Position numbers and translations under genes: made by a program
Assembly (NCBI GenBank): GCA_913030945.1
Contig: CAJWEP010000003.1
Span: 1-48,053 of the forward strand
DNA length: 48,053 bases
DNA from: an uncultured Verrucomicrobiota bacterium
GTDB taxonomy: Bacteria > Verrucomicrobiota > Verrucomicrobiia > Limisphaerales > UBA1096
Direction: 5' to 3'
Shown here: positions 609 to 44,637 of the stretch, one piece after another
Layout of the letters: each line of letters opens with the position of its first letter
Position numbering within the stretch: position 1 is the first letter of the stretch
The notes under the pieces: generated by a model
Databases searched by the model: none
Told to the model about the DNA's origin: nothing
Seen by the model: the letters and a program-made list of their open reading frames with translations, nothing else

Positions 609-1393
609 ATCAAGCCCTGGATAACAAGACTATCGTCATCGTCGGCGGGACGACCGGGCTGGGCCTGTCCGCCGCCAAGGCGTTCGTCAGCGAGGGGGCG
701 CAGATTGTCGTGGTGGGACGCAACGCCGACAGCGTGGCCAAGGCGGAGTCGCCGCTTGGCCAAGCGGCGCGCGGCTTGGCCGGCGATGCGACGGATCCGC
801 AGACCACACTCGAGGCAATCGGCTTGGCCAAGCGGGAATTCGGCGGATTCGACGGCCTTTACCACGTCGCCGGCGGCAGTGGACGAGCGATGGGCGATGG
901 ACCGCTGCACGAGATCAGCGACGACGGTTGGCGGCAGACGATCGACCTGAATCTCACCTCGGTTTTCAACTCAAACCGCGCCGCGCTGCGGGAGTTTGCC
1001 GCGCTTGGCCAAGGCGGCGTAATTCTCAACATGACCTCGGTACTGGCCGACTCCCCCGCCCCGAGCCATTTCGCGACGCACGCCTACGCGGCGGCCAAGG
1101 CCGGGATCGTTGGCCTCACGAAGTCGGCGGCGGCGCAGTACGCCACGCAAAACATCCGGGTGAACGCCATCGCACCGGCGCTCGTCGCCACGCCGATGTC
1201 CGGCCGCGCACAGGCGAGCGACGAAATCATGAGCTTCATCAAACAGAAGCAACCGCTGGACGGAGGCCGGATCGGCATGCCGGAAGATTTGGATGGCGCA
1301 GCGGTTTTCCTGATGTCCGCCGCCGCCAGTTTTATCACCGGCCAAGTGCTGGCCGTCGATGGCGGCTGGAACGTCAGCGAGGGGGAGGGATGA
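605..1393 (+). CDS. SDR family NAD(P)-dependent oxidoreductase
   Basis: GGTTGLG Rossmann motif, YAAAK catalytic motif, C-terminal ITGQVLAVDGG; GTGA overlap with purB stop. Confidence 0.92.
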   Translation: MNQALDNKTIVIVGGTTGLGLSAAKAFVSEGAQIVVVGRNADSVAKAESPLGQAARGLAGDATDPQTTLEAIGLAKREFGGFDGLYHVAGGSGRAMGDGPLHEISDDGWRQTIDLNLTSVFNSNRAALREFAALGQGGVILNMTSVLADSPAPSHFATHAYAAAKAGIVGLTKSAAAQYATQNIRVNAIAPALVATPMSGRAQASDEIMSFIKQKQPLDGGRIGMPEDLDGAAVFLMSAAASFITGQVLAVDGGWNVSEGEG

Positions 1394-2277
1394 ACTACAC
1401 GATTGGGATCGACCTCGGCGGCTCATGCGTCAAGGCAGTCGTCGTCACGCCGGACGGCGAAACGTTGGCAAGGCACAACCTGCCCTTCGACGCCGAGGCG
1501 GACATGGAGTGGGCCAATCGCCTCCGCGAACTCGTTCAATCAATCGAGGAGGAACAGGGCGGCAAGCCGGACAACATGGGTTTTTCGGCCCCGGGGCTGG
1601 CGGCGCTAGACGGCAGTTGCATCATGCACATGCCGGTACGGCTCGAGGGATTGGTTGGGTTGAATTGGCAAAAGTTTTTTGATTTCGACAAGGCGATCCC
1701 GGTGTTGAACGACGGCCACGCCGCCCTCCTCGGCGAAGCCTGGCTCGGGGCGGCGCGGGGATTCCAGACCGTCATTCTGCTGACTCTTGGCACCGGCGTG
1801 GGCGGCGCGGCGCTCGTCGAGGGCAAGCTGCTGCGCGGCCGCACCGGCAAAGCCGGCCACTTTGCCCACACCAGCCTTGGCCCGGATGGCCCGCCGGATG
1901 ATTGCGGATGCCCGAGCAGCCTCGAGTTGGCCATCGGAAACTGCACCCTCCAACGCCGCTCAAACGGACGTTTCACGGATACTGGCGGAATGATCGAGGC
2001 GATCGAGAGCGGCGACGCCGAGGCGGAGGCCGTCTGGCTCAAGTCGGTCAAAGGGCTTGCCGCAGCGATCTGTTCGTTCACCAACATCCTCGATCCGGAG
2101 GCGGTCATTCTCGGCGGCGGCATCGCCAACGCAGGCGACCGGTTGTTCGGCCCGCTTCGCGAGTACCTCGACCCGCTGCTTTGGAAGACGGATGACTACG
2201 AGATTAAGCTGCTCTCCGCGCAACTGGGCGATCTCGCCGGTGCCTACGGAGCCGCAGCCAACGCGCTGGGCGTTTAG
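1390..2277 (+). CDS. ROK family sugar kinase (glucokinase-like)
   Basis: IGIDLGGS, LNDGHAALLGE, LTLGTGVGG, CGC motif; ATG at 1390 overlaps the SDR stop (ATGA). Confidence 0.9.
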   Translation: MNYTIGIDLGGSCVKAVVVTPDGETLARHNLPFDAEADMEWANRLRELVQSIEEEQGGKPDNMGFSAPGLAALDGSCIMHMPVRLEGLVGLNWQKFFDFDKAIPVLNDGHAALLGEAWLGAARGFQTVILLTLGTGVGGAALVEGKLLRGRTGKAGHFAHTSLGPDGPPDDCGCPSSLELAIGNCTLQRRSNGRFTDTGGMIEAIESGDAEAEAVWLKSVKGLAAAICSFTNILDPEAVILGGGIANAGDRLFGPLREYLDPLLWKTDDYEIKLLSAQLGDLAGAYGAAANALGV

Positions 2278-2888
2278 ACGCCGAGCAACGCCTCAGCCGC
2301 AGCCACCGATGCAGCCTCACCGTCCTGCAGGATGGTTTGCCATCCCCTGCCCCTGCCGGTCCCGATGTTTTCCGGGCGGTCATCGATGTAAAGGATGGCC
2401 GCGCCGGACTCGCCGGTGCACTGCTCGACCACGTCATAAATCGGTTCGTCCGGTTTCATCGTCCCCACCTCAAACGACAGCACGTAATAGTCGAAGCGGC
2501 TGTAAAACGGAAACCGCTCGCGGATGTGCCCGATGGCGATCTCGTTGGTGTTGGAAAAAACGCAGGTGGGAAAACCGAGTGACTTGAGCCGCTCGAAGAA
2601 GGCGATCATCGTTTCCATCGGCGAAAAAATATCGGCGAAGATGCTGACGAACTCCGCGCGGTCGCCGCGAAACCCAGCCCCATCCCGGATCGCCGCAAAA
2701 AACTCATCGGTCGTGATTTTCCCGGACTCGTACTCGACTTGGATCGGCGAATCAACCGAATCAACCAGTTGCTGAATTTGCTCGATGCCAGCCTCGCTAC
2801 GCTCGGCAAACCGGCGGATAGCGATGCCGTAGTCGAAATCCACCAGCACCTTGCCGAGATCAAAAACAACGATGCTTGGCTGGCTCAT
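2274..2888 (-). CDS. HAD family phosphatase (YihX-like)
   Basis: VVFDLGKVL motif I, SNTN, KPD, IDDRPEN motifs; start chosen at ATG 2888. Confidence 0.88.
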   Translation of the reverse strand: MSQPSIVVFDLGKVLVDFDYGIAIRRFAERSEAGIEQIQQLVDSVDSPIQVEYESGKITTDEFFAAIRDGAGFRGDRAEFVSIFADIFSPMETMIAFFERLKSLGFPTCVFSNTNEIAIGHIRERFPFYSRFDYYVLSFEVGTMKPDEPIYDVVEQCTGESGAAILYIDDRPENIGTGRGRGWQTILQDGEAASVAAAEALLGV

Positions 2889-2892
2889 CGGG

Positions 2893-5535: not shown

Positions 5536-5669
5536 CGGCAGCAGCCTAACCGCTCGGCGCAGCCCAGAAAAGCGCAATGCGCTTGGCCAAGCGCTTGGCA
5601 GCAAAAACTTGTCAGACCCGCCGAAATCCGGATACTTGGCCAAGCGCAAGTTCAGCATTCCTCCACAAA

Positions 5670-7547: not shown

Positions 7548-10500
7548 CTACTCACTCCCTTTCAGCACCCGTTGGCACAGCGCCGGCAGCACCACCAACG
7601 TCAGCGCGGTGGCGGTGAGGATGCCGCCGATGACGACGGTGGCCAGCGGTCGCTGAACCTCCGCGCCGGTGCCGGTGGCCAACGCCATCGGAACGAAGCC
7701 GAGCGATGCAACCAACGCGGTCATCAGCACGGGGCGCAGACGTGTGAGCGCTCCCTCGCGGATGGCTTCCCCGAGCGGCCTGCCCTGATCGCGCAACTGG
7801 TTGATGAACGTGACCAGCACCAGGCCGTTCAGCACCGCCACACCCGACAACGCGATGAAACCAACCGCCGCCGAGATGGAGAACGGCAGCCCGCGCAACG
7901 CCAGCGCCGCCACGCCGCCGGTCAGCGCCAGCGGCACGGCGGTGAAGACGAGCAGCGCCGGGCGCACCGCGCCGAAGGTCGCGTGGAGCAGCAGAAAGAT
8001 CAGCACAAAACAAACCGGCACAACGACGGCTAGGCGCTGCCGGGCAGCGGTAAGATTCTCAAATTGCCCACCCCAGTCCAGCCACACTCCGGCGGGAAGT
8101 TCCACGTCCGAGTTCACCCGCTCGCGCACTTCGCTGACGAATCCAGCCAAGTCGCGCCCGCGCACGTTGCACTGCGCCACCACGCGGCGTTTGCTGTTTT
8201 CTCGGCTGACCTGAAACGGCCCCTCGGTCTGCACCACCTCCGCCAACTCGCCAAGCGGCAACACCGGCGGGAGAGCGGCACTTTCATTTGCGCCACCCGG
8301 CAAAAGGATCGGCAACGCCGCCAGCGTGGCTGCCTGCTTCCGCTTGGCCTCGGGCAATCGGACGACAATGTCGAACCGCCGGTCGCCATCGAACACCTGC
8401 CCCGCCGCGCGGCCGCCGATGGCGATGTTGACGCTCGCCACCACGGCGGCGGCATCCAGCCCGTAGCGCGCCAATATTCCGGGCCGAGGTCGCACAGTCA
8501 GTTCCGGAAGGCCGGTTGTTTGCTCAACTTTCACGTCGGCCGCGCCGGGCACGTCATTCATCACAGCGGCGATTTTTTCCGCAGTGCGCCGCAGTTCAGC
8601 CGGATTTTCGCCGAAAACCTTCACCGCAAGATCGCCCCGCACCCCGGCTATGAGTTCGTGAAACCGCATCTCGATCGGCTGGGAAAATTCGTACTTGTTG
8701 CCGACCAAGGGGGCCACGGCGTCGCGCACTTTTGACTCGATGGAAATCTCACCCTCGGGTGCACGCTTGGCCAAGCGCGGCTCCGGCCACTCGGCACGCG
8801 GCTTGAAGATGATAAGCGTGTCCGAGACACTCGGCGGCATCGTGTCGGCCGCCAGGTCGGCAGTGCCGGTTTTCGAAAAAACCAGCTCGACCTCCGGCAA
8901 CTCCGGCAGCATGGCCACGGCGCGCTCGACCTCAAGTTGCATCCGAGTGGACTGTTCGATGCCGGTGCCGGGGATGCGCATCGCGTGCATGGCGATGTCG
9001 CCCTCGTCCAACTGCGGCACGAACACCTGCCCAAGGTTCGCGAACACCACGCCCGCGCCAAGCAGTATCGCCGACGCCGCGCCGAGCACCACACCCCGGC
9101 GGCGCAGTGCAAACTCCAGCACCGGTGCGTACCCCCGCCGCGCCGTTCGCATGAGGGCGTTGTCACTCTCCGCTACGCGCCCGTTTATGGCCAGAGCCAC
9201 CATCGCCGGCACGAACGTCAGCGACAACACGAACGCCCCAGCGAGCGCGAAGATCACCGTGAGCGCCATCGGGTGAAACAGCTTCCCCTCGATGCCGGTG
9301 AGCGCGAGAACCGGCAGATAAACCACCGTGATAATGCCGACGCCGAACACGAATGGACGGCGCACTTCATGGCTGGCGGCGCGGACAACGCCGAGCCGTT
9401 CGCTGAGCGTTAGCAACCGGCCCAGTTCGCGCTGGCGGTCGGCCAAGCGGCGCAGGCAGTTCTCCACAATGATGACCGAGCCATCGATGATAATCCCGAA
9501 GTCAATCGCGCCGAGGCTCATCAGGTTGCCGCTGATGCCGGCGCGATGCATCCCAGCTGCCGCGAGCAGCATCGAGAGCGGGATGGTCAGCGCGGTGAGA
9601 AACGCGGCGCGAAGGTTGCCGAGCAGCCCGAAGAGCACGGCGATCACCAGCGCCGCGCCGTAAAACAAATTGTGCGCCACGGTGTCGATGGTGGCGTTCA
9701 CCAGCCGCGAGCGGTCGAGCACGGGCCGAACGGCAATACCCGGTGGAAGACTGCGACGCACCTCCTCCAACTGCTCCGCCGCCGCCTTGGCCACGTCGCG
9801 ACTGTTCGCGCCGGTGAGCATCATCGCCGTGCCGACCACTGCCTCATGCCCGTCGACGCTGGCGCTGCCGAGCCGCATTTCGCCGCCGAGCGTGACGTCC
9901 GCCACGTCGCCAACGCGAACTGGTGTGCCGTTACTCTGCTTCACCAAGACGTCCGCAATGGCCGCCGAGCCCCCGAGTCGGCTGCTGGCCCGTACAAGCG
10001 CCGCCGAGCCATCACGTTCAATGTAACCCGCGCCGAGACTGAGATTGTTCCGCTCCAACGCGGCGGCGAGGTCGTTGAGTGTCAGGCCATGCGCGCTCAA
10101 CGGCCCAAGCCGAGGCAGCACGTGATATTGTTTCACATAACCGCCGATGGCATCGACGTCGGCCACGAGCGGGACGGTCTTAATCTGTGGCCGGATGATC
10201 CAGTCCTGCACCGTGCGCAGATAGGCCAAGCGTTGAACCTCGTTGGTGAGCCGCTCGCCACCGGGCGTGACGAAGCCGCCCGCTTGGCCAAGCGCAGGCG
10301 GATCGAACTCCACCGCCCACATGAGCACCTCGCCAAGCCCGGTGGTGATCGGCCCCATCCTAGGCTTGATCCCCGCCGGCAATGACTCCCGCGCAGCAGT
10401 CAGCCGCTCGTTGATTTGCTGTCGAGCAAAGTAAATGTCCACCGCGTCATCAAACACCGCCGTCACCTGGCAGAAACCGTTGCGCGATATCGACCGCGTA

Positions 10501-10754: not shown

Positions 10755-11996
10755 TTAGTGCGAGTGGTCGTGCCCAGCCATGGCCTTGCCCAACTCGGCC
10801 TTGAGCAGGAAACCGCCTCGAACGACGAGCGCCTCGCCGTCCACCAAGCCACGCTTCACCGGCCTCCAGTCGTCGACCTCGGGGCCAACCGCCACCTCTC
10901 GCGCCTCGAACGTGTTCGCCTCGCCCGGCACCGGCACGAACACCACCGGCTGCCCGCCGATGTCCTGCACGGCCTTGGCCGGGACGGCGACCGATCGCTC
11001 AGCAGCGGCACCCGCCGGCAGCTTGGCCGCGACAAACATTCCGGGTCGCCATGAACCATCCCGATTGGCCACGACCGCCCGCGCCCGAACCGTGCGCGCG
11101 CCCGGCGTAGCCACCGGACTGACGTAATCGAGCGCGGCCGTGGCACTCCGACCGGTCGCCGGATCAGTCAGCGTCACGGACTGGCCCGCTTTCAACGCGG
11201 CGGCCCGCGCGGGCGACACCTCCGCAATCAGCCAGAGTTCACCCAGCCCGGCCACGACGAAAAGGTGCGACTGCTCCGGGCTAACCGTTTCGCCCAACGT
11301 GACGCCGCGCTCGACCACCGTGCCGCCGATCGGCGCGCGCACCTCGGCTTGAGGACGGATCACCCCGGTCTCCTCGAGCCGCGCGATGTCGGGCTGGGTC
11401 ATGCCGAACAATTGCAGCCGATTGCGTCCGCCGGCTTGGGTGGCCCGGGCCGACTTGAGCCGGGCCTCAGCAGCACTAAGGACGACCTCCCGTTGTTGTA
11501 CATCCGCCCGCGAGACCGCCTCGGCGGCGGCCAGTTCCCTGCCGGATTGAAAATACTGCTCCGCAGTTTGAAACCCTGTCGTGGCGGCGGCCAGTTCGGC
11601 GAGTTTGGCCAAATGATCGTTCTGCGCCGCGCCAAGCTCGGCGCTCTCGATGACGAACAACAATTCGCCCGCAGCAACCGAATCGCCGACGCCCTTGGCC
11701 AAGCGCGACACGCGGCCGCTCACCAGTGTGCCGACGTGCGCCAAGGCGTCCTCGTTGTAAGCCAGCCGCGCCGGGGCTGAAAACGTCTCACGCAACGCGC
11801 GCTGTTCCGCTTGGCCAAGCGCGATGCCGTGATGCTCGATGGCGGCGGCAGAGAGGACGATCTCATCCATGTGCGGCTCATCGGGTGAATCATGGCCGTG
11901 GCCGTGATCGCCGTGTGAATGGTCGTGTGCGTCGCCGCAGCCAACCAGCCAAAAAGCCAGCGCGCCGATGGTTGAAAAGGTGAAGATGGATTTCAT
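10755..11996 (-). CDS. czcB: CzcB-like periplasmic adaptor (membrane fusion protein) with lipobox and His-rich termini
   Basis: LVGC lipobox, HDHSHGDHGHGH, RAPIGGTV, RPGMFV, C-terminal GHDHSH. Confidence 0.88.
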   Translation of the reverse strand: MKSIFTFSTIGALAFWLVGCGDAHDHSHGDHGHGHDSPDEPHMDEIVLSAAAIEHHGIALGQAEQRALRETFSAPARLAYNEDALAHVGTLVSGRVSRLAKGVGDSVAAGELLFVIESAELGAAQNDHLAKLAELAAATTGFQTAEQYFQSGRELAAAEAVSRADVQQREVVLSAAEARLKSARATQAGGRNRLQLFGMTQPDIARLEETGVIRPQAEVRAPIGGTVVERGVTLGETVSPEQSHLFVVAGLGELWLIAEVSPARAAALKAGQSVTLTDPATGRSATAALDYVSPVATPGARTVRARAVVANRDGSWRPGMFVAAKLPAGAAAERSVAVPAKAVQDIGGQPVVFVPVPGEANTFEAREVAVGPEVDDWRPVKRGLVDGEALVVRGGFLLKAELGKAMAGHDHSH

Positions 11997-13407: not shown

Positions 13408-13803
13408 TTAAGCGAGAAGTGAGGGGGCGCGGCCAGGGATGGCGGCGCGCGTGATGAAGGCCCAGCGCTTGGCCAAGCCCGGAGGGGCGCGACTGCTCAT
13501 CGGGATGCAGCGTTCCGTCGATGCGGGGATGGTGAGGCGAAAGACATGCTCCCAGGCGAGAGCCGCGTCGAAGTTGAAATCGTAATCAACCGGCTTGCTG
13601 AAGTTGTAGTCGCCGGACTCGATAGCCGTGCATACATCGCACTCGTTGTGCTCGTCACGGGATTGCTGATCACCGTCGTGCTGATGCTCCGATTCGCAGC
13701 AGAATTCCGGGAGCCAGCCCGCGGTGCCCAGCAGGCAATGGGAGGTCGCCGGCAGCCAGATGGCCGCCAGAAACCATACCACGATGAGCCGAAATAACTT
13801 CAC
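13408..13803 (-). CDS. Small exported Cys/His-rich leader protein with CxxC and RAPP/RAPS motifs (DUF2946/CruR/CutF-like)
   Basis: Hydrophobic N-terminus, SHC, CC, HQH, CDVC, RAPP and terminal RAPS; about 71 bp upstream of czcC on the same strand; GTG start 13803 inferred. Confidence 0.75.
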   Translation of the reverse strand: MKLFRLIVVWFLAAIWLPATSHCLLGTAGWLPEFCCESEHQHDGDQQSRDEHNECDVCTAIESGDYNFSKPVDYDFNFDAALAWEHVFRLTIPASTERCIPMSSRAPPGLAKRWAFITRAAIPGRAPSLLA

Positions 13804-15934: not shown

Positions 15935-15965
15935 CCCAGCGCTTGGCCAAGCAGCCTAATGATCC

Positions 15966-17207
15966 ATGAAAGGACTCCCCGGCTTTCGCGATTTTTACCC
16001 GGAACCGATTCCCACCGCGGACTCGTGGAGCCTCGATCTGCGCCGACATATCTTCGACACCTGGCGCGGCACCGCCGAGCGCTACGGCTTCCGCGAATAC
16101 GACGGCCCGCCGATCGAGGAACTCGAGCTTTACACCAAGAAGAGCGGCGACGAGATCGTCGGACAGCTGTACAACTTCACCGACAAGGGCAGCCGCAACG
16201 TCTCGCTGCGGCCGGAGATGACCCCCACCCTTGCTCGGATGGCCGCCGCGCATACGCGTAACTACAAGAAACCGATCAAGTGGTTCTCCATCCCCCAACT
16301 CTTTCGCTACGAGCGGCAGCAGAAGGGGCGACTGCGTGAACACTTCCAACTCAACGCCGACATCATCGGCGAGGAAAACCTGGCCGCCGACGCCGAGTTG
16401 ATCGCCCTGCTCATCGACACCCTGCGCAACCTCAAACTGACGAGCGACGACTTCGTCGTACGCCTCAGCAGCCGCCACGCCTGGCAGGACTTTTTCGAAA
16501 ACAGCAGCGCACATGAAAAGGATGTGTGTGACTTTTACCAGATCATCGACAAGCTCGACCGCGAAGACCCGATCGTCTCCGGCGAAAAGTTGGCCAAGCT
16601 CGGTTTCTCCCTCGAGCAGGTGAACGACTTCATCGAGAGCGGCCAAGCGACCGACGAACTCGCCGCCATCATCGGCAACATCGAGGCACGCGGCTTGGGC
16701 GACTTCATCAAGGTCGACTACCAGATCATCCGCGGCCTGGCGTACTACACCGGGCCGGTGTACGAGGCGTTCGACAAGCGGGGCAAATTCCGAGCCATAG
16801 CCGGCGGAGGCCGCTACGATCACCTCGTCAAGCTCGTCTCCGGTGGAAAAACGGATTTACCCGCGCTTGGTTTCGGCATGGGCGATGTCGTGCTTGCCGA
16901 GCTACTCAAGGATCGCGGCCTCGTTCCTCCCCTTGGCCAAGCGCTCGACGCCTTCGTGCAAATCACCGACGAGTCGCTGCGCAACGCCTCGCTTAGCCTC
17001 GTCCAGCAACTTCGCCAAGCCGGACAAGCCACCGAGTATCCACTGCTCAGGGCCAAGCCGGACAAGCAACTCAAGCGCGCCCTTGAGCTAAAAGCCAAGT
17101 GGCTCGTCACCCTCGACAACGCCAACCAAGCCCACATCAAAAACCTAGGAACCCGCGAGGAACAAACCGTCCCATTGGTTGACGTAGCCTCCGCTTTGCA
17201 GGACTAA
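15966..17207 (+). CDS. hisS: Histidine--tRNA ligase
   Basis: LRPEMTP, FRYERQQKGRLREHFQ, RGLAYYTG, GGGRYD. Confidence 0.96.
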   Translation: MKGLPGFRDFYPEPIPTADSWSLDLRRHIFDTWRGTAERYGFREYDGPPIEELELYTKKSGDEIVGQLYNFTDKGSRNVSLRPEMTPTLARMAAAHTRNYKKPIKWFSIPQLFRYERQQKGRLREHFQLNADIIGEENLAADAELIALLIDTLRNLKLTSDDFVVRLSSRHAWQDFFENSSAHEKDVCDFYQIIDKLDREDPIVSGEKLAKLGFSLEQVNDFIESGQATDELAAIIGNIEARGLGDFIKVDYQIIRGLAYYTGPVYEAFDKRGKFRAIAGGGRYDHLVKLVSGGKTDLPALGFGMGDVVLAELLKDRGLVPPLGQALDAFVQITDESLRNASLSLVQQLRQAGQATEYPLLRAKPDKQLKRALELKAKWLVTLDNANQAHIKNLGTREEQTVPLVDVASALQD

Positions 17208-18317: not shown

Positions 18318-20977
18318 ACCGCGACGATATTCACCAGTTTGCCGGGAATGACGATCACTTTTTTCACGCTTTTGCCGTCAGTGTGGCGCCGGACGTTTTC
18401 GCTCTCCTGCGCGATTCGCTCAATTTCAACCTTGTCGAAGTTTGCTGGAATCTGGATGCGGTCGCGCAGCTTGCCGTTGACCTGCACTGCCATCTCGATG
18501 GTGGACTCTACGAGGTGCGCCTCATCGTGGCTAGGCCAAGGCTTGTACGCCAGCGTCGAACCGGCTCCGTTGGCCTTGGCATACAGTTCCTCGGCAATGT
18601 GCGGCGCGAACGGCGCGAGCAGCAGCAGGAAATCATTCATCACCGACAGCGGCCGAATGTCCCAGTTTGACGCCTCGTTGGTGAACACCATCAGCGCGGA
18701 GATGGCGGTATTGAAGCGCAGATGTTCCATGTCCTCGGTCACTTTTTTGATGCAGGTGTGCAGCACCTTGAGCTGCCCGGGCGTGGCCTCCGCCTGCCCC
18801 ACCGTTTCGTTCAGTTTCAGCGCGGCGAGCAGCTCCGGTCCCGCATCCGGATTCGCCGTCAGTTGCTGTTCGAACTCCTTTTCGCTCTGCTCGTCGATGA
18901 ACATCCGCCACACGCGGCCGAGGAACCGGTACACACCCTCAACGCCCTTCGTGTTCCACGGTTTCACCATCTCGAGCGGCCCCATGAACATTTCGTACAG
19001 GCGAAAGGCATCCGAACCAAACTCCGCAAGGATGTCATCCGGATTGACGACGTTGCCGCGCGACTTGGACATCTTCTGGCCGTCCGAGCCAAGGATCAGC
19101 CCCTGATTGACCAGCTTGTAAAACGGCTCCGGCGAACTCACCTGGCCAAGGTCAAACAACACCTTGTGCCAAAAGCGCGCGTATAGCAGATGCAACACCG
19201 CGTGCTCAGTGCCGCCGACATACAGGTCGACGCCCGGCGTGGCGTTGTCGTTGGCCGATCCCATCCAGTAGCGTTCTGCCCCGTCGGCGACGAAGCGGTC
19301 GCTGTTTTGCGCATCGAGAAAGCGCAGGTAATACCAGCAACTGCCGGCCCATTGCGGCATGGTGTTTGTCTCCCGCTTGAGGCCGTCGTCGGCCTGGCAC
19401 CACTCTTCGGCACGGGCCAACGGCGGGTCGCCGGAACCGGTTGGCTTGAAGTCGGTGAGATCCGGCGGCGTGAGCGGCAACTCATCTTCCTCCAGCCCAA
19501 GGTGGCCGCCCTCGTCCCAAACGATCGGGAACGGCTCGCCCCAGTAGCGTTGCCGGCTGAACAGCCAGTCACGCAGCTTGTAATTGATCATCCCTTGGCC
19601 AAGCGCTTTCTCCTCGAGCCAGGCGGTGATTTTGCGCTTAGCCTCGGATGTCGGCAGGCCGTCGAGCAAACCGGAATTCACCGCCGTGCCAACGCCGGTG
19701 AAACCAACCGACTCTTCCCCTTCGGGCGCCTGGACGACCACCTCGATCGGCAGCTTGAATTTTTGCGCGAACTCCAGATCGCGCGTATCGTGTGCCGGCA
19801 CCGCCATGATCGCGCCAGTGCCATACCCGGCCAGAACGTAGTCGGCCGTCCAGATCGGCACCGGCCGGCCATTGGCCGGGTTGATCGCGAACGCGCCTGT
19901 AAACACGCCGCTTTTGTCCTTGGCCAAGTCGGTCCGCTCCAAGTCGCTCTTCCTCGCCGCCTCGGCTTGATACGCTTCGACCTCGGCTTGTTGTTCGGCT
20001 GAGACGACTTCGTCCAGCAACCCGCTCTCCGGCGAGAGGACCATGTACGTCGCGCCAAACAGCGTGTCCGGGCGCGTGGTGAAAACGGCAATCTCGACGT
20101 CGGAATCCTCGACGCGGAAAAGCACCTCGGCCCCATCGGAGCGTCCGATCCAGTTGCGCTGCATTTCCTTGAGAGAGTCGCTCCAGTCGATGCCGTCGAG
20201 ATCGTCGAGCAGGCGCTGTGCGTAGGCGGTGATGCGCAGCATCCATTGGCGCATCGGTTTGCGCTCCACCGGAAAACCACCGACCTCGCTCACGCCCTCC
20301 TTGACCTCCTCGTTAGCTAACACGGTGCCAAGCTTAGGGCACCAATTCACCGGCGCCTTGGATACGAAAGCCAAGCGATAGTTATCGCGCCAAGCGCGGC
20401 GTTGTTCGTCGGTGGTCGCGTCCGGCGGATAGGCCAGCGTGTCGATCGGCTCCGCCTTGTTGGTCGTCGGGTTGAACCACGAGTTATAAAGCTGCAGGAA
20501 GATCCACTGCGTCCAGCGGTAGTAACCGGGGTCGGTGGTGTTGAGTTCGCGACTCCAGTCGTAGCTGAAGCCAAGCGACTGGATCTGCCGCTTGAAGTTG
20601 GCCACGTTCGCCTCGGTGGTGATCCGCGGGTGCTGGCCGGTCGTGATGGCGTACTGCTCCGCCGGCAGGCCGAACGCGTCCCAGCCCATCGGGTGCAGCA
20701 CGTTGAAGCCGCGCATGCGCCTGTAACGGGCGAGGATGTCGGTGGCGGTGTAGCCCTCCGGGTGGCCGACGTGCAGCCCGGCGCCGGACGGGTACGGGAA
20801 CATGTCAAGGATGTAATACTTCGGCACGTCGCCGGGATTCGCGTCGGCATGACGCTCGCGGAATGGATGGCCATCGGGGACACTTTCACCCGGGTTCCAT
20901 GCCCGAAATGTTTCGTTCTCCTGCCAATGCTGCTGCCATTTGGGCTCAAAAATCTGGAACGGATATTGTCTGCGCAT
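18314..20977 (-). CDS. leuS: Leucine--tRNA ligase
   Basis: [14 protein letters not shown] (HIGH), FTTRPDT editing domain, KMSKS. Confidence 0.98.
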
Positions 20978-21028
20978 TCTCGCGGATAAACAGGTTCAGT
21001 TGGGTTGTCGCTTGGCCAAGCGCTTGGC

Positions 21029-26027: not shown

Positions 26028-27641
26028 TTAGCCGATTCCCCCGCTGGTGTGTAGCCCCCGCTTGGCCCGAGCCGCTCCCGCGACAGCCACTGCCACGAGG
26101 AGACAGGCCCAACCGAAGACGTCGCCGTGCCGGTTGTACACCGTTTGGCCAAGCGCCTGGCCAAGCGGCACCTCGAACGACACAAATCCGGCCCCGTAAA
26201 TGTCGTCGGTCTCCTGCCCGTAAAACTGCCGTACTTGGCCAAGCGGATCGATCCAGCACGTGAGCCCGTTATTGGCGCAGCGGACCAGCGGCACGCCGTT
26301 CTCCACCGCACGAAAGACGGCGTTGGCCGCGTGCTGCCACTGCTCCGGCCCGGCGCCGAACCAGCCGTCGTTGGTCAGGTTCACCAGCAGGTCCGTCACC
26401 GCCGACACGTGCTCACGGCCCCCGTGCGGAAACGAGTCCTCGAAGCAGATCAACGGCGCGAGCACGTATTCGACGTCCTGCAGCGTGAACTGCACCGGCT
26501 CGATTCCCGCAGTGAAACTGCCGCCGATCGGGGAAAGGTATTTCATGAACGGCAGCGCCTTCTCGAACGGGATGTACTCGCCAAACATGACCAGTCGCCG
26601 CTTGCGGTAACTTGGCAACTGCGGGCCGTCCGCCGTCAATAAAACCGCGCTGTTGTAAAATCGAACCTCATCCGAGCCCTCCACCCGCTCGACGTCGTCC
26701 GCGCCAAAGAGCAGCGGCACGCCGTTGGTCTTCACCATGTCAAACACCTCCGGCCAACGCTCCGCCGAGATTGGCACGCAGGCCTCCGGCCATAGGAGCA
26801 AATCCGGCTTGGTGGCCAACGCCAGCCGCGACAACTCGAGCATCTTGGCCAACCGCTCATCACCGGTGCCGCCCTGCCAAATCAGCTGCTGCGGGATGCT
26901 CGGCTGGACCAAGGCAACAGTGAATTCATCTTTCCCGGAATGGCTTCCGGAATTAAAATGGGGAGTGATCCGCTTCACTATTCCCCAGCTGCAAACCAAG
27001 CCAAATGCCAGCAGCGGCAACGCCGTGTCCGCCCACCATGACAATGGGTTGGCTGGCGCGCGGCGGATTTGCAGCACGGCAAACAAAAGGCTCACCGACG
27101 CCCACACCACCAAGAACGACACGCCGTACACACCGGTCACCGACGCGATCTGGATCAGCGGCAGGTTCTCGAACTGGCTGACGCCGAGGAAGTTCCACGG
27201 GTAGCCGCCGAGCAACCGTGCCTGCACCATCTCCAAGGCCACCCAGGCCACCGCGGCAAACAGCCCAAAGCCGAGCCGCCGAAACCACGGCCACTCCAGC
27301 TTGGCCAAGCCGTCCCGCAGCCACCCGCCGCAAAACCACGCCCACGCCGCCGGATACAGCGCAGAGTACAGGCTCAACGCCAGCCAGCCGCCAACCGCCC
27401 CGGCCGCATGTGGCATATTCAGCAGGAATCGCAGCGAAACCAGACGGAAAACCAGCGCCGCGACAAAGGCCAATCCGAACAACCGCCAACGCCGCTCTCC
27501 TGCGACGACCGCCAACCAGGCGCCCGGCACCAGCCAGGCGAAGCCAAGCCAGCGTGGCTCCGGGAAAGCCAGAGCCAAGGCCAGCCCCACCAATACCGCC
27601 AGCAGCCACCGCACTTGGCCAAGTTTTTTAATCCCCAACAA
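26028..27641 (-). CDS. lnt: Apolipoprotein N-acyltransferase
   Basis: GGYPW, WPE, YNSA, KRRLVMFGEY, ICFE, NDGWF; start uncertain (TTG 27641 or GTG 27614). Confidence 0.93.
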   Translation of the reverse strand: MLGIKKLGQVRWLLAVLVGLALALAFPEPRWLGFAWLVPGAWLAVVAGERRWRLFGLAFVAALVFRLVSLRFLLNMPHAAGAVGGWLALSLYSALYPAAWAWFCGGWLRDGLAKLEWPWFRRLGFGLFAAVAWVALEMVQARLLGGYPWNFLGVSQFENLPLIQIASVTGVYGVSFLVVWASVSLLFAVLQIRRAPANPLSWWADTALPLLAFGLVCSWGIVKRITPHFNSGSHSGKDEFTVALVQPSIPQQLIWQGGTGDERLAKMLELSRLALATKPDLLLWPEACVPISAERWPEVFDMVKTNGVPLLFGADDVERVEGSDEVRFYNSAVLLTADGPQLPSYRKRRLVMFGEYIPFEKALPFMKYLSPIGGSFTAGIEPVQFTLQDVEYVLAPLICFEDSFPHGGREHVSAVTDLLVNLTNDGWFGAGPEQWQHAANAVFRAVENGVPLVRCANNGLTCWIDPLGQVRQFYGQETDDIYGAGFVSFEVPLGQALGQTVYNRHGDVFGWACLLVAVAVAGAARAKRGLHTSGGIG

Positions 27642-35123: not shown

Positions 35124-35187
35124 CCGGCGCTTGGCCAAGCGCACGAAAGACTGGCCAAGCCGGCCAGCCGCATGCTAGATTTCTGCC

Positions 35188-35960: not shown

Positions 35961-38900
35961 TTTGCTACAGCTACTTTGTTCGCCTCCCGATTTGTCGGGG
36001 TGAATTTGTGGATCAGCTTGCCGGTGTTGACGTTCCAGAGCCGGAGGATGCCGTCGAAGCCCCCGCCGACAGCCAACCTACCGTCCGGTGTCACGTCGCT
36101 GGTGTGCATGTAGGCACTAGTGTCCGGCAGGCGGCGCACCTCGCCACCGTCCTCTTTCACAACTTTCACGACATGATCACCGGCTGAGACGACTGCCTGC
36201 GTGCCGATGCCAAGGAAGTGCACCGAGGTGACTTCTTTGTCGAATCCGCTGAATGATTTCTTTTGTTCGCCGTTTAATAGGTTCCAGATTTTCACCGCCT
36301 TGTCGGCGCCGACGGTGGCCAGCACGCGGCCGTTTTGCTGCCAACTCACACCCAGCACGTGGCCGGTGTGCCCTTCGAGCGCCCGGAGTTCCCTGCCCCG
36401 GCTGGTCTCGAACACACGAGCAAAGCGGTCGGTGCCGCCCGTGGCCAAGCGACTGCCGCTCGGAGAGAAGGCCAGCGAGCAGACCGTGTCGCTGTGTGCC
36501 ATGGGGATTCGCAATTCCTCGGAGCCGTCCTCCATGCTCCAGATGAAAATCTCCCCGCCGCGCGACGGGAATCCGCCGCCGGTGGCGAGCCATTGGCCGT
36601 CGGGGCTAAAGTCTAGTGCGATCACACGGTCCTCGAACGGCGATTCATCGTTGCCGCCGATGGATCGTGCCAAAGCCCACATCGGCTCGACGGCGAGCAT
36701 CAACATCTCCGGAGAATCGCCGGTCAATGCCAACCGCCCGTTGCTCAACGGCTGCATAAACCGTGCCGACCGAGCGGACGAGTCAACGGCATGCGAACGG
36801 ATGCCGGTGGCGCTGGCCCAAGCCTGAACCCGCCCATCGACGGACAGCGTGTAAACCAGCAATCCGTCGTCCGAGTATGTAGTATCGATCCAATCCTGCA
36901 TCCCCGCGGCCGCCACCGACTTGGCCTCGGCGAGCGCTGCTTCGTGCCGGACGGGCAGTTTGTCGGCTTCGGCCTGCGCTGCCCTGGTTTGCTCCAGGTT
37001 CGCCTCGGCAGTTTGGATGTTTTTGCTGGTGAACCCAACTTCCGACTTGGCCAAGTCAACCTCACGCTTGGCTTTCTTGATCGCATTGCCGGCATCGGCT
37101 GTTTTTTTATCGAGCGCTTTTTTCTCCTCCGGCGTTTTCTTTTTGCGTTCCTCGAGTGCGGCCAGGGCTTTCACTTTTCCTTCGAACTCCTCCTGTGCCG
37201 GCTTCACTTTGGCCTCGGCCGAGGCGAACGAGCGGGCAGCAGCTTGTGCCCCGGTTTCCGTCTTGGCCAGTTGCTGCCTGGCCGGGGCGAACCGGTCGAG
37301 CGCAGACTCGAATTGGTCGGCCTTGCGCTTGGCCAAGGCAGCGGCGACATCGGCCTGCATGGCCAACGCCTCGTCTCCCTTGGCCTTGTCGGCCGAGGTG
37401 CGCACGTCTGCGGCCAGCTGCCGGGCGTTCTGAGCAGCCGAGCCAAGTTCCATCAACTCGGCGGTCAGTTTCGCTTTGACGGTGGCGGCTTGGGCCTTGG
37501 CCTCGCGGGCCTTGGCCAGGGCATCCTTGGATTCGGCGGTCCGCGCCTGCGCCGCCTTCAACGCTGCGTCGGCACCGGACTTGGCTTTTGTCGCGGTCTC
37601 GATTTTTTTCGGCAGTGCGGCGATTTCGTCGGTCAGTTTTTTCAGGCTGGCTTCGCTGTCATTTTTCTCCTTGGTTTTGTCGGCCACGGTTTTTTCATGC
37701 TTGGCCAAGGCCTCTGTCGCCTTCTTCGCGGCTTCCCTGTCCTTTTTGAGTTCCTTCTCTTTGCTCTCGACGTTGGCCTTGTGGTAGCCGGTCTCGGCCT
37801 TCACAAATGCCAGCGCCTGCTCTGCCCGTGCCACCGACTCGGCGGCGAGCGGGTTGCCTTCCAGTTGGGCTGTCATCGCCCACTTGTTTGTTGACCAAAG
37901 TTTCGCCGTCGGCCCTCCGAGGGTGGCGAGTTGTTCGCCGTCGGCCCGAATCCGTAGTCCGGTTACAGGCGCGCCGTGGTCGAGTGCCCCGATCTGCCTG
38001 CCGTCCTCGACACTCAGGACCATCACCGTGTTGTCGGCACGGCCGGCAAGCACTGTGTCTCCCCCCGGCAATGCCGCCAGCGCGGTGATGTCACCGCCCG
38101 GTTTCCATTCGTGCACATCTTGTCCGGGGTTGATCGCAGCCCAGATTTTGATAATGCCGCCGGGATGCGCTGACACGAGCTGTTCGTCGTCCAGCCAAAC
38201 GACGGCTTGGACCGCCGGTGGCGATGATTCGCGCGTGACGCGCTCCCCGGTCACTGTTTCCCAGACACGCACTTTTCCATCGGTAAACGACACGGCGACC
38301 CGGTTGCCGTTGGGCGACACGGCCAATTGTCCGGCTGCCTGGCCCGGGACTTGGTCGCTCCAGAGCGGCATCATGCTTTGCAGATTGATCGCCTGGACTG
38401 CCCCGGCCGAGCCGGCAACGAGCACACGCCCCCGGCCAGGAGCGGCGCCGAATGCTGTGACTGACTCGCCGCCGGACAGCAAGGTCAGCGGGCGGGCCGC
38501 CGACGCCGTTTGCCGCCGCCAAAGCTTGGCCACGCGATAACCTCCCGAAGCCAGCATTTGGCCGTCGGGGCTGAACGCGAGCGACTGCACGACATCCCGA
38601 TGCGCCACGGCGACCGCGGCGGGGTTACCCTTGGCCAAGGCAGGATCGAAAAGCCGGGCGGCAAGGCGGCGGGTCGGCAAGTGGTAGACAAACACCTGAT
38701 TGCCACGGCCACAGGCGGCGTACTGGCCGTCCGGCGAAATGGCAGCGGTGTAAATCGGCTTAAGGGCGAAAGGAAGCGGACGCCAGTTCAATTCCTGCGT
38801 CACCCGTGGCACTTCGCCCTTGGCACCTTCATCGATCCAAAGCTTGAGGAGGCCAAGCTGGTGGGGCGTAAGCTTGCCGGCGCTGACCTTGTTACGCCGC

Positions 38901-40752: not shown

Positions 40753-40975
40753 GCCACTGGCTACAAGAGAATTACAAAGTCTCGCCAGCTGGGTGGGTGG
40801 GGGAGTTTGTGACTTGGCCAGGCGATTGGCCAAGCTTCCGATGCAGAGACAGGTTCAACCCTGCTTGGCCAAGTTTTTCCTGTTGTTTCCGTCAAAGAGC
40901 CGGTAAGTTGTCCCCGACCTGAAGACATCATCGTGATGTTTTCTGGCGTTTTCATTTATCCAAAGAACAAAAACA

Positions 40976-43871: not shown

Positions 43872-44049
43872 GTTTATGGTAACGACTTCAAAACCTGCTG
43901 AATCGGGGGAACCCTATCCATACCGCCGTTCATGCGCAAGACAAAAAATGCGCTCCAACTAACCGGTTGACTCCCGCATTGCCGCGCCAACATACTGCCT
44001 GCCATCACGCTGCACCGCGGAAGCCGGGCCGGCACACCCAGACCATTTG

Positions 44050-44508
44050 ATGAACGAACTTCTCGCCCAGTCGACGCCGCTGCAAATCACGCTGTTCTGC
44101 CTGATCGGAGCCCTCAACACCCTGTTGGATTTCGTGATCTACAATTTGCTGACAAAAAAACTGTCGCGAATCCCCTCTAACATCCTGTCCACCAGCGTGG
44201 CGATGGCGTTCAGTTTCTCGGCCAATTTTTTTGTCTTTCAGCCCGAGGTCGTCCGCGCCCCTGAGCAGGCGGCGAAGTTCATCGCCGTGACGGCCCTTTC
44301 GCTTTACTTCATCCAGAATGTCGTCATTTATGTCACCTCCAACCTCTGGCTTCAGCCCGTGAGAACCGCGCAGGCTCTCTCGCGGAAATGCCGGTTCAGT
44401 CGCGGCTGGAGCGACGCCTTCATCAGCAAGAACACCGTCAAGCTCCTGGCCACGGTGTGCAGCATGATCTGGAATTTTCTCTGGTACAAATACTACGTTT
44501 ACCTTTGA
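44050..44508 (+). CDS. GtrA family membrane protein
   Basis: FCLIGALNTLLDF, FSANFFVF, WNFLWYKYYVY. Confidence 0.85.
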   Translation: MNELLAQSTPLQITLFCLIGALNTLLDFVIYNLLTKKLSRIPSNILSTSVAMAFSFSANFFVFQPEVVRAPEQAAKFIAVTALSLYFIQNVVIYVTSNLWLQPVRTAQALSRKCRFSRGWSDAFISKNTVKLLATVCSMIWNFLWYKYYVYL

Positions 44509-44637
44509 CCGATTGGCCAAGCGCTTGGCCTCCGATGCCGCCCCAGCCGGCACATAGGGGTTGTTTTTTGAATAATGGCCGGTAGCATCCGCGTCCGGAC
44601 ACACAGTTTTTAATCAATGAAACGAACAGCAAAAAAC

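Follow-up and report, generated by a model that had tools for sequence, protein, structure and literature searches.

The words known as DNA uptake sequences (DUS, in Neisseriaceae) and uptake signal sequences (USS, in Pasteurellaceae) are defined functionally, in that competent cells preferentially take up, or are transformed by, DNA that bears the motif. The known words are asymmetric, and their receptor is the minor pilin ComP in Neisseria, with a minor pilin predicted in the Pasteurellaceae. Within genes, DUS/USS have been described as inflating the encoded tripeptides about 2-fold (Findlay & Redfield), and inverted pairs of copies have been reported downstream of genes (Kingsford et al.). 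For the cyanobacterial palindrome HIP1, abundance is reported to correlate phylogenetically with pilus and competence proteins, and the motif to raise transformation efficiency (PMC13756078; bioRxiv 10.1101/2024.09.10.611283). Because its abundance correlates with natural-transformation proteins, HIP1 has been proposed as an uptake or recognition tag, and a role at the recombination step that follows uptake has also been suggested (bioRxiv 10.1101/2024.09.10.611283).

Within the 48,053-nucleotide stretch of DNA analysed here (the window), exact copies of the palindrome CTTGGCCAAG number 25, against a mean of 0.11 and a maximum of 1 in 100 dinucleotide shuffles. Eleven copies extend to the 12-mer GCTTGGCCAAGC, which is absent from the shuffles, and seven to the 14-mer CGCTTGGCCAAGCG (starting at 753, 5580, 8764, 10281, 11808, 21009 and 35128). 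These counts and coordinates, together with two perfect 16-mers and a 20-bp palindrome (Table 1), reproduce those of an earlier note on the sequence, whose guess of about 62% GC is close to the measured 61.2%. Two of its statements can be put more precisely. The reported span of 750-44530 holds at its start, while the last exact copy is at 40864 and the end at 44530 matches a one-off copy at 44512. The reported division into 19 genic and 6 intergenic copies becomes 21 in ORFs and 4 intergenic under rough gene calls; either split is equally defensible because the copies at 5582 and 5635 sit in a doubtful 5′ extension of dnaX, an ORF in which the Pfam match begins only at residue 68.

Table 1. 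Exact copies of the motif in the window, with their gene context and conservation
Position	Copy	Context	Frame	Conservation
750..769	20-bp perfect palindrome, core 755-764	ORF 605-1393(+)	CTT-GGC-CAA-G (Leu-Gly-Gln, LGQ)	
822..833	12-mer	ORF 605-1393(+)	C-TTG-GCC-AAG (Leu-Ala-Lys, LAK)	
1004..1013	10-mer	ORF 605-1393(+)	LGQ	
5579..5594	perfect 16-mer	5′ region of dnaX ORF 3847-5676(-), maybe upstream of true start		
5635..5644	10-mer	doubtful 5′ part of dnaX ORF 3847-5676(-)		
8764..8777	14-mer	AcrB-family gene 7548-10742(-)	LAK	kept in G010, G016, G018
10281..10294	14-mer	AcrB-family gene 7548-10742(-)	LGQ	kept in G010, G016, G018
11694..11703	10-mer	HlyD-family gene 10755-11996(-)	LAK	
11808..11821	14-mer	HlyD-family gene 10755-11996(-)	LGQ	
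13467..13478	12-mer	ORF 13408-13869(-)	LAK	
15941..15952	12-mer	intergenic by rough gene calls, directly upstream of ORF 15966-17207(+)		
16932..16941	10-mer	ORF 15966-17207(+)	LGQ	
19594..19603	10-mer	leuS 18314-20977(-)	LGQ	other residues encoded in outgroups and motif-poor clade
19919..19928	10-mer	leuS 18314-20977(-)	LAK	identical in 16/16 motif-rich genomes with full-length leuS; LAK retained via other synonymous codons in motif-poor clade and outgroups
21009..21022	14-mer	intergenic, 34-43 nt upstream of leuS start		kept in G010, G016, G021, G009, G019, G002, G011
21092..21101	10-mer	ORF 21029-22849(-)	LAK	among aligned genomes, source genome only
26234..26243	10-mer	lnt 26028-27866(-)	LGQ	among aligned genomes, source genome only
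27299..27310	12-mer	lnt 26028-27866(-)	LAK	
27613..27624	10-mer (12-bp palindrome)	lnt 26028-27866(-)	LGQ	
35127..35142	perfect 16-mer	intergenic, starts 4 nt past stop of ORF 33621-35123(+)		
37044..37057	10-mer (14-bp palindrome)	PSCyt1/WD40 gene 35957-39229(-)	LAK	
37328..37337	10-mer	PSCyt1/WD40 gene 35957-39229(-)	LAK	
37700..37709	10-mer	PSCyt1/WD40 gene 35957-39229(-)	LAK	
38629..38640	10-mer (12-bp palindrome)	PSCyt1/WD40 gene 35957-39229(-)	LAK	
40864..40873	10-mer	intergenic, ~110 nt past stop of ORF 39412-40752(+), then T-run		

In the source genome, a Verrucomicrobiota MAG (3,413,498 bases, 345 contigs, 93.6% complete), the 10-mer occurs 1,722 times and the 12-, 14- and 16-mers occur 844, 492 and 108 times, respectively, so that the enrichment extends genome-wide and is not confined to the window. 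The observed-to-expected ratio of the 10-mer is 433 under an order-0 Markov model and 78 under an order-3 model. Real counts also lie far above codon-preserving expectations: called CDS hold 1,349 copies, compared to 80.7 ± 7.0 in 20 synonymous-codon shuffles (a 17-fold excess) and 11.7 in 10 codon-order shuffles. The genome-wide copies define the consensus palindrome (S)CG-CTTGGCCAAG-CG(S), and the sequence information around the core ends at ±3 nt. A literature search returned no description of this motif as a known element.

Comparison with relatives showed that the motif is hyper-abundant in only one uncultured Verrucomicrobiota genus, where the 12-mer is found 144-1,852 times in 21 of 26 species genomes; at most 13 copies occur in any of 388 further genomes of the order, which represent 85 other families. 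Flank preferences are the same across all motif-rich clades. The lowest densities are found in G001, G004, G006, G008 and G024 (2-5 copies/Mb), followed by G041 (45/Mb) and G011 (119/Mb), while genomes bearing the transformation genes described below include G017 (150/Mb, GC3 0.69), G018 (177/Mb) and G010 (461/Mb, GC3 0.87). The GC3 of leuS is 0.32-0.36 in the motif-poor clade, compared to 0.69-0.87. G011 lies inside a motif-rich clade as the sister of G002 (support 100/100). The LeuRS tree alone does not reject a basal placement of the motif-poor clade (AU p = 0.198), and the case for loss in that clade is made from relic copies.

Copies are placed unevenly with respect to genes. The genic share is 78% (1,346 of 1,722 copies, the other 376 being intergenic), and density is 0.85/kb between genes versus 0.45/kb within them. 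The first 20 nt past stop codons are the densest position, with a peak of 7.6/kb at 0-9 nt, and a copy lies within 35 nt of the gene end at 227 of 2,340 gene ends. Convergent spacers are the richest (1.35/kb) and promoter-bearing divergent spacers the lowest (0.66/kb). Four lower-GC contigs are almost free of copies.

The motif has left an imprint on the proteome. Genic copies are distributed unequally over the three reading frames (759, 506 and 81 copies), and the tripeptides LAK (3.94x), LGQ (3.94x), GQA (3.8x) and AKR (3.3x) show the four largest excesses of the proteome. Among 1,781 LAK tripeptides, 963 are spelled TTG-GCC-AAG where 102 are expected, and TTG accounts for only 18.5% of leucine codons. 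It is the DNA sequence, not the protein sequence, that carries the signal. In leuS of the motif-rich lineages, copies were created through residue substitutions (H/Y to Q, K/S to Q, x to S) where the sequence was already motif-like, the pattern that a directional process would produce.

Copies are also conserved beyond background. Seven relatives that keep the transformation genes have conserved 48 of 85 window copies, compared to 13-31% of background 10-mers. In G011 only 2 of 12 window copies are kept (background 24%), and in G041, G008 and G001 none of 11 in each case. At ten shared sites G002 keeps five copies and G011 two, a difference that is not significant, and its density is only slightly below those of the gene-bearing G017 and G018, so that G011 offers thin evidence. 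Relative to perfect 12-mers, one-off copies become steadily more frequent, with a ratio of 0.71 in G003, 1.53 in G000, 1.83 in G002, 2.40 in G011, 3.26 in G041 and 3.9 in G008, and the preferred flanks are eroded in G011. The motif-poor clade carries relics of the motif: it contains 6-14 perfect 12-mers versus 0-1 for a control word, and two of the four alignable residual copies in G001 lie exactly at the position of a source-genome copy.

The transformation genes follow the same distribution. ComEC, DprA and ComM are each present in 14 of 26 genomes, and all 42 matches fall in motif-rich genomes: the seven lowest-density genomes account for none of 21 possible matches, while each gene is found in 14 of the 19 others. 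The source genome encodes all three proteins and has a ComF-like gene. The absences of ComEC and DprA are real deletions. By synteny, dprA is gone from between conserved neighbours in G008, G006, G041 and G011, and in G011 the whole comEC ORF has been excised, with flanks that align on either side. The neighbours of the deleted dprA and comEC are all retained, indicating that the deletions were targeted and do not reflect general decay. Among single-copy and envelope controls, LeuRS and secretin are present in 26 of 26 genomes, and Ffh (5/5) and NuoN (4/5) in the low-density clade. PilM is present in all five tested genomes of motif-poor lineages, and the cluster of PilM, secretin and an HhH protein is kept even where the motif has been lost. 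RadC, a competence-regulon gene, is patchy (3 of 6 motif-rich genomes tested, 0 of 4 with the genes lost).

The losses amount to two or at most three independent events (low-GC clade, G041 and G011), and kin are not independent. The loss in G011 is separate from that in the low-GC clade because G011 is nested among motif-rich genomes. The largest loss event is confounded with a drop in GC that would by itself wear down a GC-rich word, and further genes may have disappeared together with this drop. In G012 the motif reaches 363 copies/Mb although all three genes are missing; with 67% completeness and two flanking genes likewise absent from the assembly, this genome is uninformative and lends no support to a transformation reading. 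Most bacteria have ComEC, DprA and ComM but no motif of this kind, so that the three genes are at best necessary.

Taken together, these results are consistent with a model in which the palindrome serves as a 'self' tag of this one genus and is linked to natural transformation, analogous in function to DUS, USS and HIP1, a reading to which we assign a probability of roughly 0.5 and in which a bias in uptake or recombination is inferred. Since the motif fades in relatives without the DNA-uptake genes, it would probably mark the DNA of this uncultured soil or water bacterium as its own. The HIP1- or DUS-like signal that the earlier note put forward for a PVC bacterium is borne out in general terms, the motif being genome-wide, lineage-specific and DNA-level in a Verrucomicrobiota host. 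None of the refuting outcomes listed in that note came about, whether in the codon-preserving shuffles, in the counts from relatives or in the literature. Among the three bases considered there (methylation or repair, DNA uptake, and a nucleoid or recombination signal), the co-distribution with ComEC, DprA and ComM favours DNA uptake. In this model a component of the transformation pathway would prefer motif-bearing DNA; this reader might be a two-fold symmetric receptor that binds double-stranded DNA during uptake, or a factor that engages the incoming DNA during recombination. Because motif-bearing DNA would more often replace the resident allele by homologous recombination, mutations creating or improving copies would be over-transmitted, a molecular drive that is possibly reinforced by selection. 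Copies would build up at sites that tolerate them, in permissive frames and most of all directly behind stop codons, and would be conserved for as long as the pathway works. Upon loss of the transformation genes the drive would stop and the copies would erode.

The motif resembles DUS/USS in its 10-12-nt core with weaker flanks, its genome-wide spread at ~10^3 copies (here roughly one per 2 kb), its limitation to one lineage, its favoured genic frames with inflated tripeptides, its scarcity in atypical, probably acquired, DNA, and its association with transformation machinery, on the presence of which it appears to depend. A concentration downstream of genes is likewise shared; DUS/USS there often form terminator-like hairpins from inverted pairs, while folding does not support a hairpin or terminator function for single copies here. 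Unlike DUS/USS, which are oriented words, the motif is fully palindromic and amounts to an inverted pair fused into one, its host belongs to the Verrucomicrobiota and not the Proteobacteria, and tripeptide inflation is ~4x versus roughly 2x. Like HIP1 (GCGATCGC), it is a hyper-abundant short palindrome of genes and spacers that is conserved at orthologous sites beyond neutral expectation. HIP1 is an 8-mer found across a phylum and served by the cognate methylases DmtA and DmtC with methylation-dependent effects, whereas here the core is 10-16 bp, the range is one genus, and no methylase of the four families searched was found in the source genome. HIP1 is also described as quasi-periodic; the counts per 10 kb in the 345-contig assembly are Poisson-like (mean 5.12, variance 5.11), with near-exponential spacings. 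By analogy with HIP1, a role at the recombination step after uptake is possible. As an over-represented short word that would be read by DNA-processing machinery the motif is also comparable to Chi and KOPS, which are asymmetric, strand-skewed and far less enriched. An oriented signal of the Chi/KOPS type was rejected, since the motif is its own reverse complement and, as a palindrome, cannot carry orientation.

Other explanations were weighed against the transformation-linked tag. The palindrome could be the binding site of an abundant nucleoid, segregation or repair protein, a symmetric dimer, under ordinary selection, its gene having been lost together with the competence genes. While a palindrome of 10-16 bp suits a dimeric DNA-binding protein, copies are evenly spread and conserved above background, and the co-loss of ComEC, DprA and ComM comprises only 2-3 events with wider genome change including the GC drop, one would not expect a site with a core function to prove dispensable on three occasions or to decay almost to background. 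Moreover, a minimum in divergent spacers with a maximum past stop codons is unusual for regulators or nucleoid proteins, and retention of the genes flanking dprA and comEC points to targeted deletions; we therefore regard this explanation as unlikely, although it merits consideration. Less plausible is a functionless by-product, whether of mutation or repair biased towards this particular sequence or of GC-biased gene conversion, in which the motif would be a 'mutational attractor' tracking recombination rate and GC. Density does climb with GC3 among gene-bearing genomes, from G017 to G010, one-off variants are strongly enriched too, and motif and GC drop together in G041 and the low-GC clade. 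However, no known untargeted bias gives a specific 10-16-bp palindrome at 433x, and by hand calculation composition shifts the expectation only ~1.2-fold across the GC range of the motif-rich genomes. Codon preference is overridden and amino acids are changed, and the sharp post-stop peak is hard to derive from mutation bias. The by-product explanation overlaps with the drive component of the transformation-linked tag.

Methylation or repair had been proposed as a further basis. In the classical HIP1 manner, an orphan MTase would mark the motif, with or without very-short-patch (VSP) repair of deaminated 5-methylcytosine, and copies would accumulate through repair bias or a methylation-dependent function. 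HIP1 is reported to be recognised by two methylases and its transformation effect to depend on methylation. A GC-rich palindrome with a GGCC centre resembles many methylase targets, and mobile restriction-modification genes are often missing from MAGs. Profile searches of the 93.6% complete source assembly detected no MTase of PF00145, PF01555, PF02086 or PF02384 and no Vsr, although an MTase of an unknown family or an unassembled gene may exist. Across the genus, the C5-MTase family PF00145 occurs in 2 of 26 genomes (one motif-poor), Vsr (PF03852) in 1 of 26, and the N4/N6 family PF01555 only in the motif-poor G008 (1 of 26). Among one-off variants with a central substitution, C>T (G>A) is the commonest (132 copies versus 18-78 for the others), whereas VSP repair predicts its depletion. 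A product of Dcm/Vsr-type repair was rejected on these grounds, and a methylation-based origin in general has only a slim chance of being correct. A REP/MITE-like miniature mobile repeat, or an assembly or adapter artefact, would match the high copy number and the palindromic form, but is effectively refuted: conservation stops ±3 nt from the core, 21 MAGs of a single genus carry the motif at high copy number against none of 388 others, and in-frame copies in conserved genes are orthologous in up to 16 independently assembled genomes. REP/MITE elements proper are intergenic and imperfect, 20-40+ nt long with conserved flanks, and were rejected for a motif that is largely genic and in frame and carries no information further out than ±3 nt. 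An RNA-level hairpin, acting as a transcription terminator or in mRNA 3′-end protection, is very unlikely. While the post-stop peak and the rich convergent spacers agree with such a function, and the 14-16-mers have the potential to fold into a hairpin of 5-6 bp closed by a 4-nt loop, most copies lie inside genes and a T-run occurs within 16 nt at only 50 of the 376 intergenic copies. Of four single copies put through folding tests, three did no better than shuffles (z = -0.09, +1.43 and -0.12), and the fourth (z = -2.18) pairs with an adjacent half-copy. The 16-mer at 35127..35142 can pair with a half-copy at about 35150-35160. At gene ends the motif may have an additional, secondary function of the kind described for DUS/USS.

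The 25 copies of the palindromic 10-mer CTTGGCCAAG that the earlier note had counted in the window are exact (dinucleotide shuffles gave a mean of 0.11; window GC is 61.2%), as are the 11 12-mers, the seven 14-mers, the two 16-mers and the 20-bp palindrome, together with their coordinates; 35 further copies carry one mismatch. The claim that the signal is genome-wide was borne out, with the motif and its sub-words ranking highest among words of 6 to 14 nt. In the genome of origin (G000; 3,413,498 bases, 345 contigs, GC 59.5%, the window being contig C3) the 10-mer occurs 1,722 times, the 12-mer 844 times, the 14-mer 492 times and the 16-mer 108 times, and the motif exceeds expectation 433-fold under base composition and 78-fold under a third-order Markov model. 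Maximum-order Markov models returned observed/expected ratios of ~1 for every sub-word and are uninformative, because the sub-words themselves carry the enrichment; lower orders and shuffles were used instead. Binned at 10 kb, copy numbers along the genome are Poisson-distributed (mean 5.12, variance 5.11).

A position matrix of all 1,722 copies limited the information to ±3 nt around the core, giving the consensus (S)(C)(G)CTTGGCCAAG(C)(G)(S). The absence of information beyond ±3 nt identifies a short word, not a piece of a longer repeat, and the 3-nt GC periodicity of the flanks indicates a preferred reading frame. With our own rough gene calls (2,340 ORFs, 87% coding), 1,346 copies were genic (0.45/kb) versus 376 non-genic (0.85/kb). 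Genic copies were read as C-TTG-GCC-AAG (Leu-Ala-Lys, 759 copies), CTT-GGC-CAA-G (Leu-Gly-Gln, 506) or CT-TGG-CCA-AG (Trp-Pro, 81). The enrichment withstood the codon-preserving shuffle that had been proposed as a check: per-gene synonymous shuffling, which leaves protein sequences and each gene's codon usage unchanged, predicted 80.7 ± 7.0 copies in coding sequence, compared to 1,349 observed, and only 11.7 remained when codon order was shuffled. TTG-GCC-AAG spells 963 of the 1,781 LAK tripeptides (102 expected), while TTG encodes 18.5% of leucines. The four most over-represented tripeptides of the proteome, LAK (3.94x), LGQ (3.94x), GQA (3.8x) and AKR (3.3x), are all translations of the extended motif; through these inflated tripeptides the motif shapes proteins too.

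Among named records, Verrucomicrobia MAGs come closest (LeuRS is 87% identical to that of 'UBA673'), and the GTDB family consists of one genus with 26 species genomes. Counts in these relatives, likewise proposed earlier, showed that the enrichment is shared by the genus: the 12-mer occurs 330-1,852 times in 20 of the 26 genomes and 144 times in G041, and 6-14 times, versus 0-1 for the reversed control word, in a motif-poor, low-GC clade of five (G001, G004, G006, G008, G024). Flank preference is the same across all motif-rich clades, and there are therefore no 'dialects'. Outside the genus, none of 388 genomes had more than 13 copies of the 12-mer in an order-wide sample of 401 genomes, 86 families and 165 genera. 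A 355-kb sample of motif-poor G001 contained no substitute hyper-abundant word, its top k-mers being only A/T runs. Several members of another family of the order, f37 (e.g. G222, G385, G284, G369, G351), show a faint excess (5-13 12-mers versus 0 for the control), much like the one in the motif-poor clade; the excess may reflect relics in a sister lineage or a signal that is only emerging.

A search for co-distributed genes, as the earlier note had advised, singled out three core transformation genes that track motif density. ComEC (PF03772), DprA (PF02481) and ComM (PF13541) each had hits in 14 of the 26 genomes, and all 42 detections fell in motif-rich genomes. The seven genomes of lowest density yielded 0 of 21 hits; they comprise the five motif-poor ones, with 2-5 copies/Mb, and G041 and G011, with 45 and 119 copies/Mb. 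At least one of the three genes was present in 18 of the remaining 19; the exception, G012, is 67% complete and the flanking genes are also unassembled. At the detection rate of these 19 genomes (42/57), the chance of 21 misses is ~10^-12 by a hand calculation that ignores kinship, owing to which the independent loss events number only two or three.

The absences are real. In G000, dprA is flanked by an aldolase-like gene and nuoN. These neighbours are adjacent in G008, G006, G041 and G011, which lack dprA, with a small ORF of unrelated sequence or a gap of ~150-560 nt between them. Similarly, comEC follows ffh in G000, its ORF has been excised whole from G011 (the flanks align to both sides), and other genes follow ffh in G041 and four motif-poor genomes. 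All neighbours of the deleted genes are kept, and control genes are present in these lineages (LeuRS and secretin in 26/26 genomes, PilM in 5/5 tested; in the motif-poor clade, Ffh in 5/5 and NuoN in 4/5). The ComEA-like proteins suggested earlier as candidates did not behave this way: the HHH_3 domain is present in both groups. Since HHH_3, secretin and PilM are not co-lost with the motif, the envelope machinery does not track it. A ComF-like gene, hit in G000 below the curated cut-off, is absent from 4/4 gene-lacking genomes, G000 being the only motif-rich genome compared. RadC is patchy (3/6 motif-rich genomes) and supports a link to transformation weakly at best.

Orthologous sites indicate how copies are held and gained. 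In an alignment of leuS from 22 genomes and four outgroups (G005, G015, G020 and G023, without full-length leuS, were left out of the tree), the synonymous positions of one copy are identical in 16/16 motif-rich genomes, while in the motif-poor clade and outgroups Leu-Ala-Lys is kept with different codons. Three more leuS sites arose only in motif-rich lineages by amino-acid replacement (Gln in place of His/Tyr, Gln in place of Lys/Ser, and Ser in place of x). New leuS copies formed where the sequence was already motif-like, several times independently. Across up to 28 kb of syntenic window DNA, 48 of 85 G000 copies were conserved in seven relatives (G018 7/14, G021 5/14, G016 10/14, G010 14/19, G009 4/9, G014 5/11, G019 3/4), compared to 13-31% for background 10-mers. 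Copies also turn over, every relative having some that are missing from G000.

G011 is robustly nested among motif-rich genomes as the sister of G002, and its gene loss is thus independent of that in the motif-poor clade. It kept 2/12 G000 copies (background 24%) versus 5/10 in G002, a contrast between the two that is not significant at shared sites; most of its altered copies differ from the motif by one or two transitions, its sample density is lower (0.29/kb versus 0.50/kb in G002) and its flank preference is eroded. The ratio of one-off to perfect copies is 0.71 in G003, 1.53 in G000, 1.83 in G002, 2.40 in G011, 3.26 in G041 and 3.9 in G008. Based on small numbers, these trends are consistent with decay after gene loss. 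The motif-poor clade is monophyletic (100/100) and falls inside the genus in the LeuRS tree (90/93), and an AU test left a basal position unrejected (p = 0.198). The case for the motif in the ancestor of this clade therefore rests on relics: its genomes still hold a surplus of perfect as well as one-off copies, and 2/4 alignable residual copies in G001 lie exactly at G000 copy positions.

Taken together, these results lead us to propose, with a probability of about 0.5, that the motif is a transformation-linked self tag kept up by drive; the two or three independent events, a confounding GC shift and incomplete MAGs are caveats to this reading. The motif may act during binding and uptake or in the recombination step, and selection may add to drive. 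A basis in methylation or repair, offered in the earlier note, fared poorly: C5-methyltransferases (PF00145) occur in 2/26 genomes, one of them motif-poor, Vsr occurs in 1/26, the N4/N6 family PF01555 is found only in motif-poor G008, and PF02086 and PF02384 are absent from G000 (93.6% complete). Copies with C>T (G>A) in the central GGCC showed no depletion, and a model of methylation with Vsr-type repair was rejected on gene content and the one-off spectrum.

Placement between genes bears on a possible function in RNA. Spacer density is highest in convergent spacers (1.35/kb), followed by tandem (0.84) and divergent ones (0.66). After stop codons, normalised density falls from 7.6/kb (0-9 nt) to 4.2/kb (10-19 nt), 2.6/kb (20-29 nt) and ~1/kb beyond, and at 227 of the 2,340 gene ends the nearest copy is no more than 35 nt away. 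Copies may lie so close to stop codons because no other permissive position costs less, or because they serve a secondary function where transcripts end. A hairpin or terminator role was not supported for single copies, 3/4 tested folding no better than shuffled sequence; a T-run lies near just 50 of 376 intergenic copies.

To our knowledge, sequence-specific DNA uptake is firmly established only in two proteobacterial families. In cyanobacteria, an uptake role was proposed only recently for HIP1, the one other palindrome known to be hyper-abundant. Like the uptake sequences DUS and USS, the motif is abundant and lineage-specific, shows frame bias and inflated tripeptides, concentrates 3' of genes and is scarce in atypical DNA, and it is associated with the transformation genes; it differs in being a palindrome and a different word, in having no associated methylase and in leaving a deeper mark on the proteome. 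HIP1 also has a methylase feature, without counterpart in G000 among the four methyltransferase Pfam families searched. In published work, uptake-sequence tripeptides are inflated ~2x in Haemophilus, Actinobacillus and Neisseria (PMC2817400), uptake sequences occur in inverted pairs 3' of genes (PMC1852404), and HIP1 correlates phylogenetically with pilus and competence proteins, with experiments linking it to transformation efficiency (PMC13756078; bioRxiv 10.1101/2024.09.10.611283). Judged from genome sequences, the motif would work like DUS/USS and looks like HIP1, and we file it in neither. Searches of one literature library returned no account of the motif in bacterial genomics (string matches to the 10-mer or 8-mer were primers or unrelated uses), nothing beyond passing mentions of uptake sequences in Verrucomicrobia, and nothing comparable on over-represented palindromes and transformation.

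Base composition also differs within the genus. The leuS GC of the motif-poor clade is 41-43% (GC3 0.32-0.36), compared to 57-64% (0.69-0.87) in the rest of the genus, with G041 intermediate (50%, GC3 0.55); the G001 sample has 40% GC. This fall is possibly due to loss of transformation-linked biased gene conversion. No significant shift in substitution direction was detected after competence loss (GC>AT/AT>GC was 5.9 in G011 and 4.4 in G002, p = 0.47), and the G011 branch is longer (184 versus 102 changes). A more far-reaching reading, improbable as a whole, would combine three propositions: that with this motif uptake or recombination tags extend for the first time beyond Proteobacteria and Cyanobacteria, the motif being a methylation-independent palindrome with a two-fold symmetric receptor; that G011, G041 and the low-GC clade are natural knock-outs at three stages of decay; and that transformation loss halts tag drive and removes GC-raising, recombination-linked biased gene conversion, lowering GC from ~60% to ~40%.

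If the self-tag reading is true, this would be a third unrelated lineage, suggesting that self tags on DNA for transformation arise repeatedly in evolution, with palindromes perhaps a common solution. Related species without comEC, dprA and comM and with graded motif erosion offer a comparison for the molecular-drive model and decay rates, and the genus lets one ask whether transformation-linked gene conversion props up GC. As a lineage barcode, the motif may serve for binning and decontaminating MAGs of this group and for flagging recently acquired DNA; it is also worth including in DNA for transformation attempts on these so far uncultured Verrucomicrobiota.

Against ~36 expected, 3 copies were found in the 71 kb of four G000 contigs (15-24 kb each, GC 0.54-0.56), which are either islands that the genome has (recently) acquired or contigs placed in the MAG by mis-binning. 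Some copies are chained, a second palindrome, GCCAAGCGCTTGGC, appearing where half-sites join tail to tail (108 sites genome-wide), and twelve pairs of copies have starts 10-19 nt apart.

Locations of the motif copies, genes and loci described in the text
Feature	Location	Details
20-bp palindrome	window 750-769
16-mer	window 5579-5594
16-mer	window 35127-35142
Ordinary chromosomal gene content	window 3847-47934	dnaX, AcrB/HlyD/OEP efflux operon, leuS, lnt; also PSCyt1-WD40 protein (1,090 aa), GFO/IDH/MocA oxidoreductases
leuS	window 18314-20977	orthologues compared for GC: L101-L106 (G008, G006, G004, G024, G041, G001)
leuS copy, identical among motif-rich genomes	window 19919
Chained copies	window 21000-21035
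Chained copies	window 44512-44530	includes a one-mismatch copy at 44512, the source of the end coordinate 44530 in the earlier note
Low-density contigs	G000 C26, C48, C56, C59 (L205-L208)	accessory metabolic genes: arsenite-oxidase-like Rieske/molybdopterin protein, PFOR, Rnf, penicillin amidase; also 2,415-aa multicopper-oxidase/cytochrome-c-peroxidase fusion, CotH/lamin-tail protein
comEC place, 3' of ffh	L142-L145 (G008, G001, G004, G024)	membrane-protein ORF of ~160-190 aa and ORF of 670-750 aa; neither with a match in the G000 protein set (E<1e-8)
DNA methyltransferase hits	L082, L083, L115-L117 (G008)	two PF00145 and three PF01555, one PF01555 broken by six stop codons; only genome of the genus with several such hits
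Conserved envelope cluster	G000 C25 ~2600-11800	PilM-like gene, gene with a ComEA-type helix-hairpin-helix (HHH_3) domain in a ~470-aa frame, secretin domain in an open frame of ~4,200 aa; equivalents G041:C63, G011:C79, G008:C91, G001:C49, kept despite loss of comEC, dprA and comM
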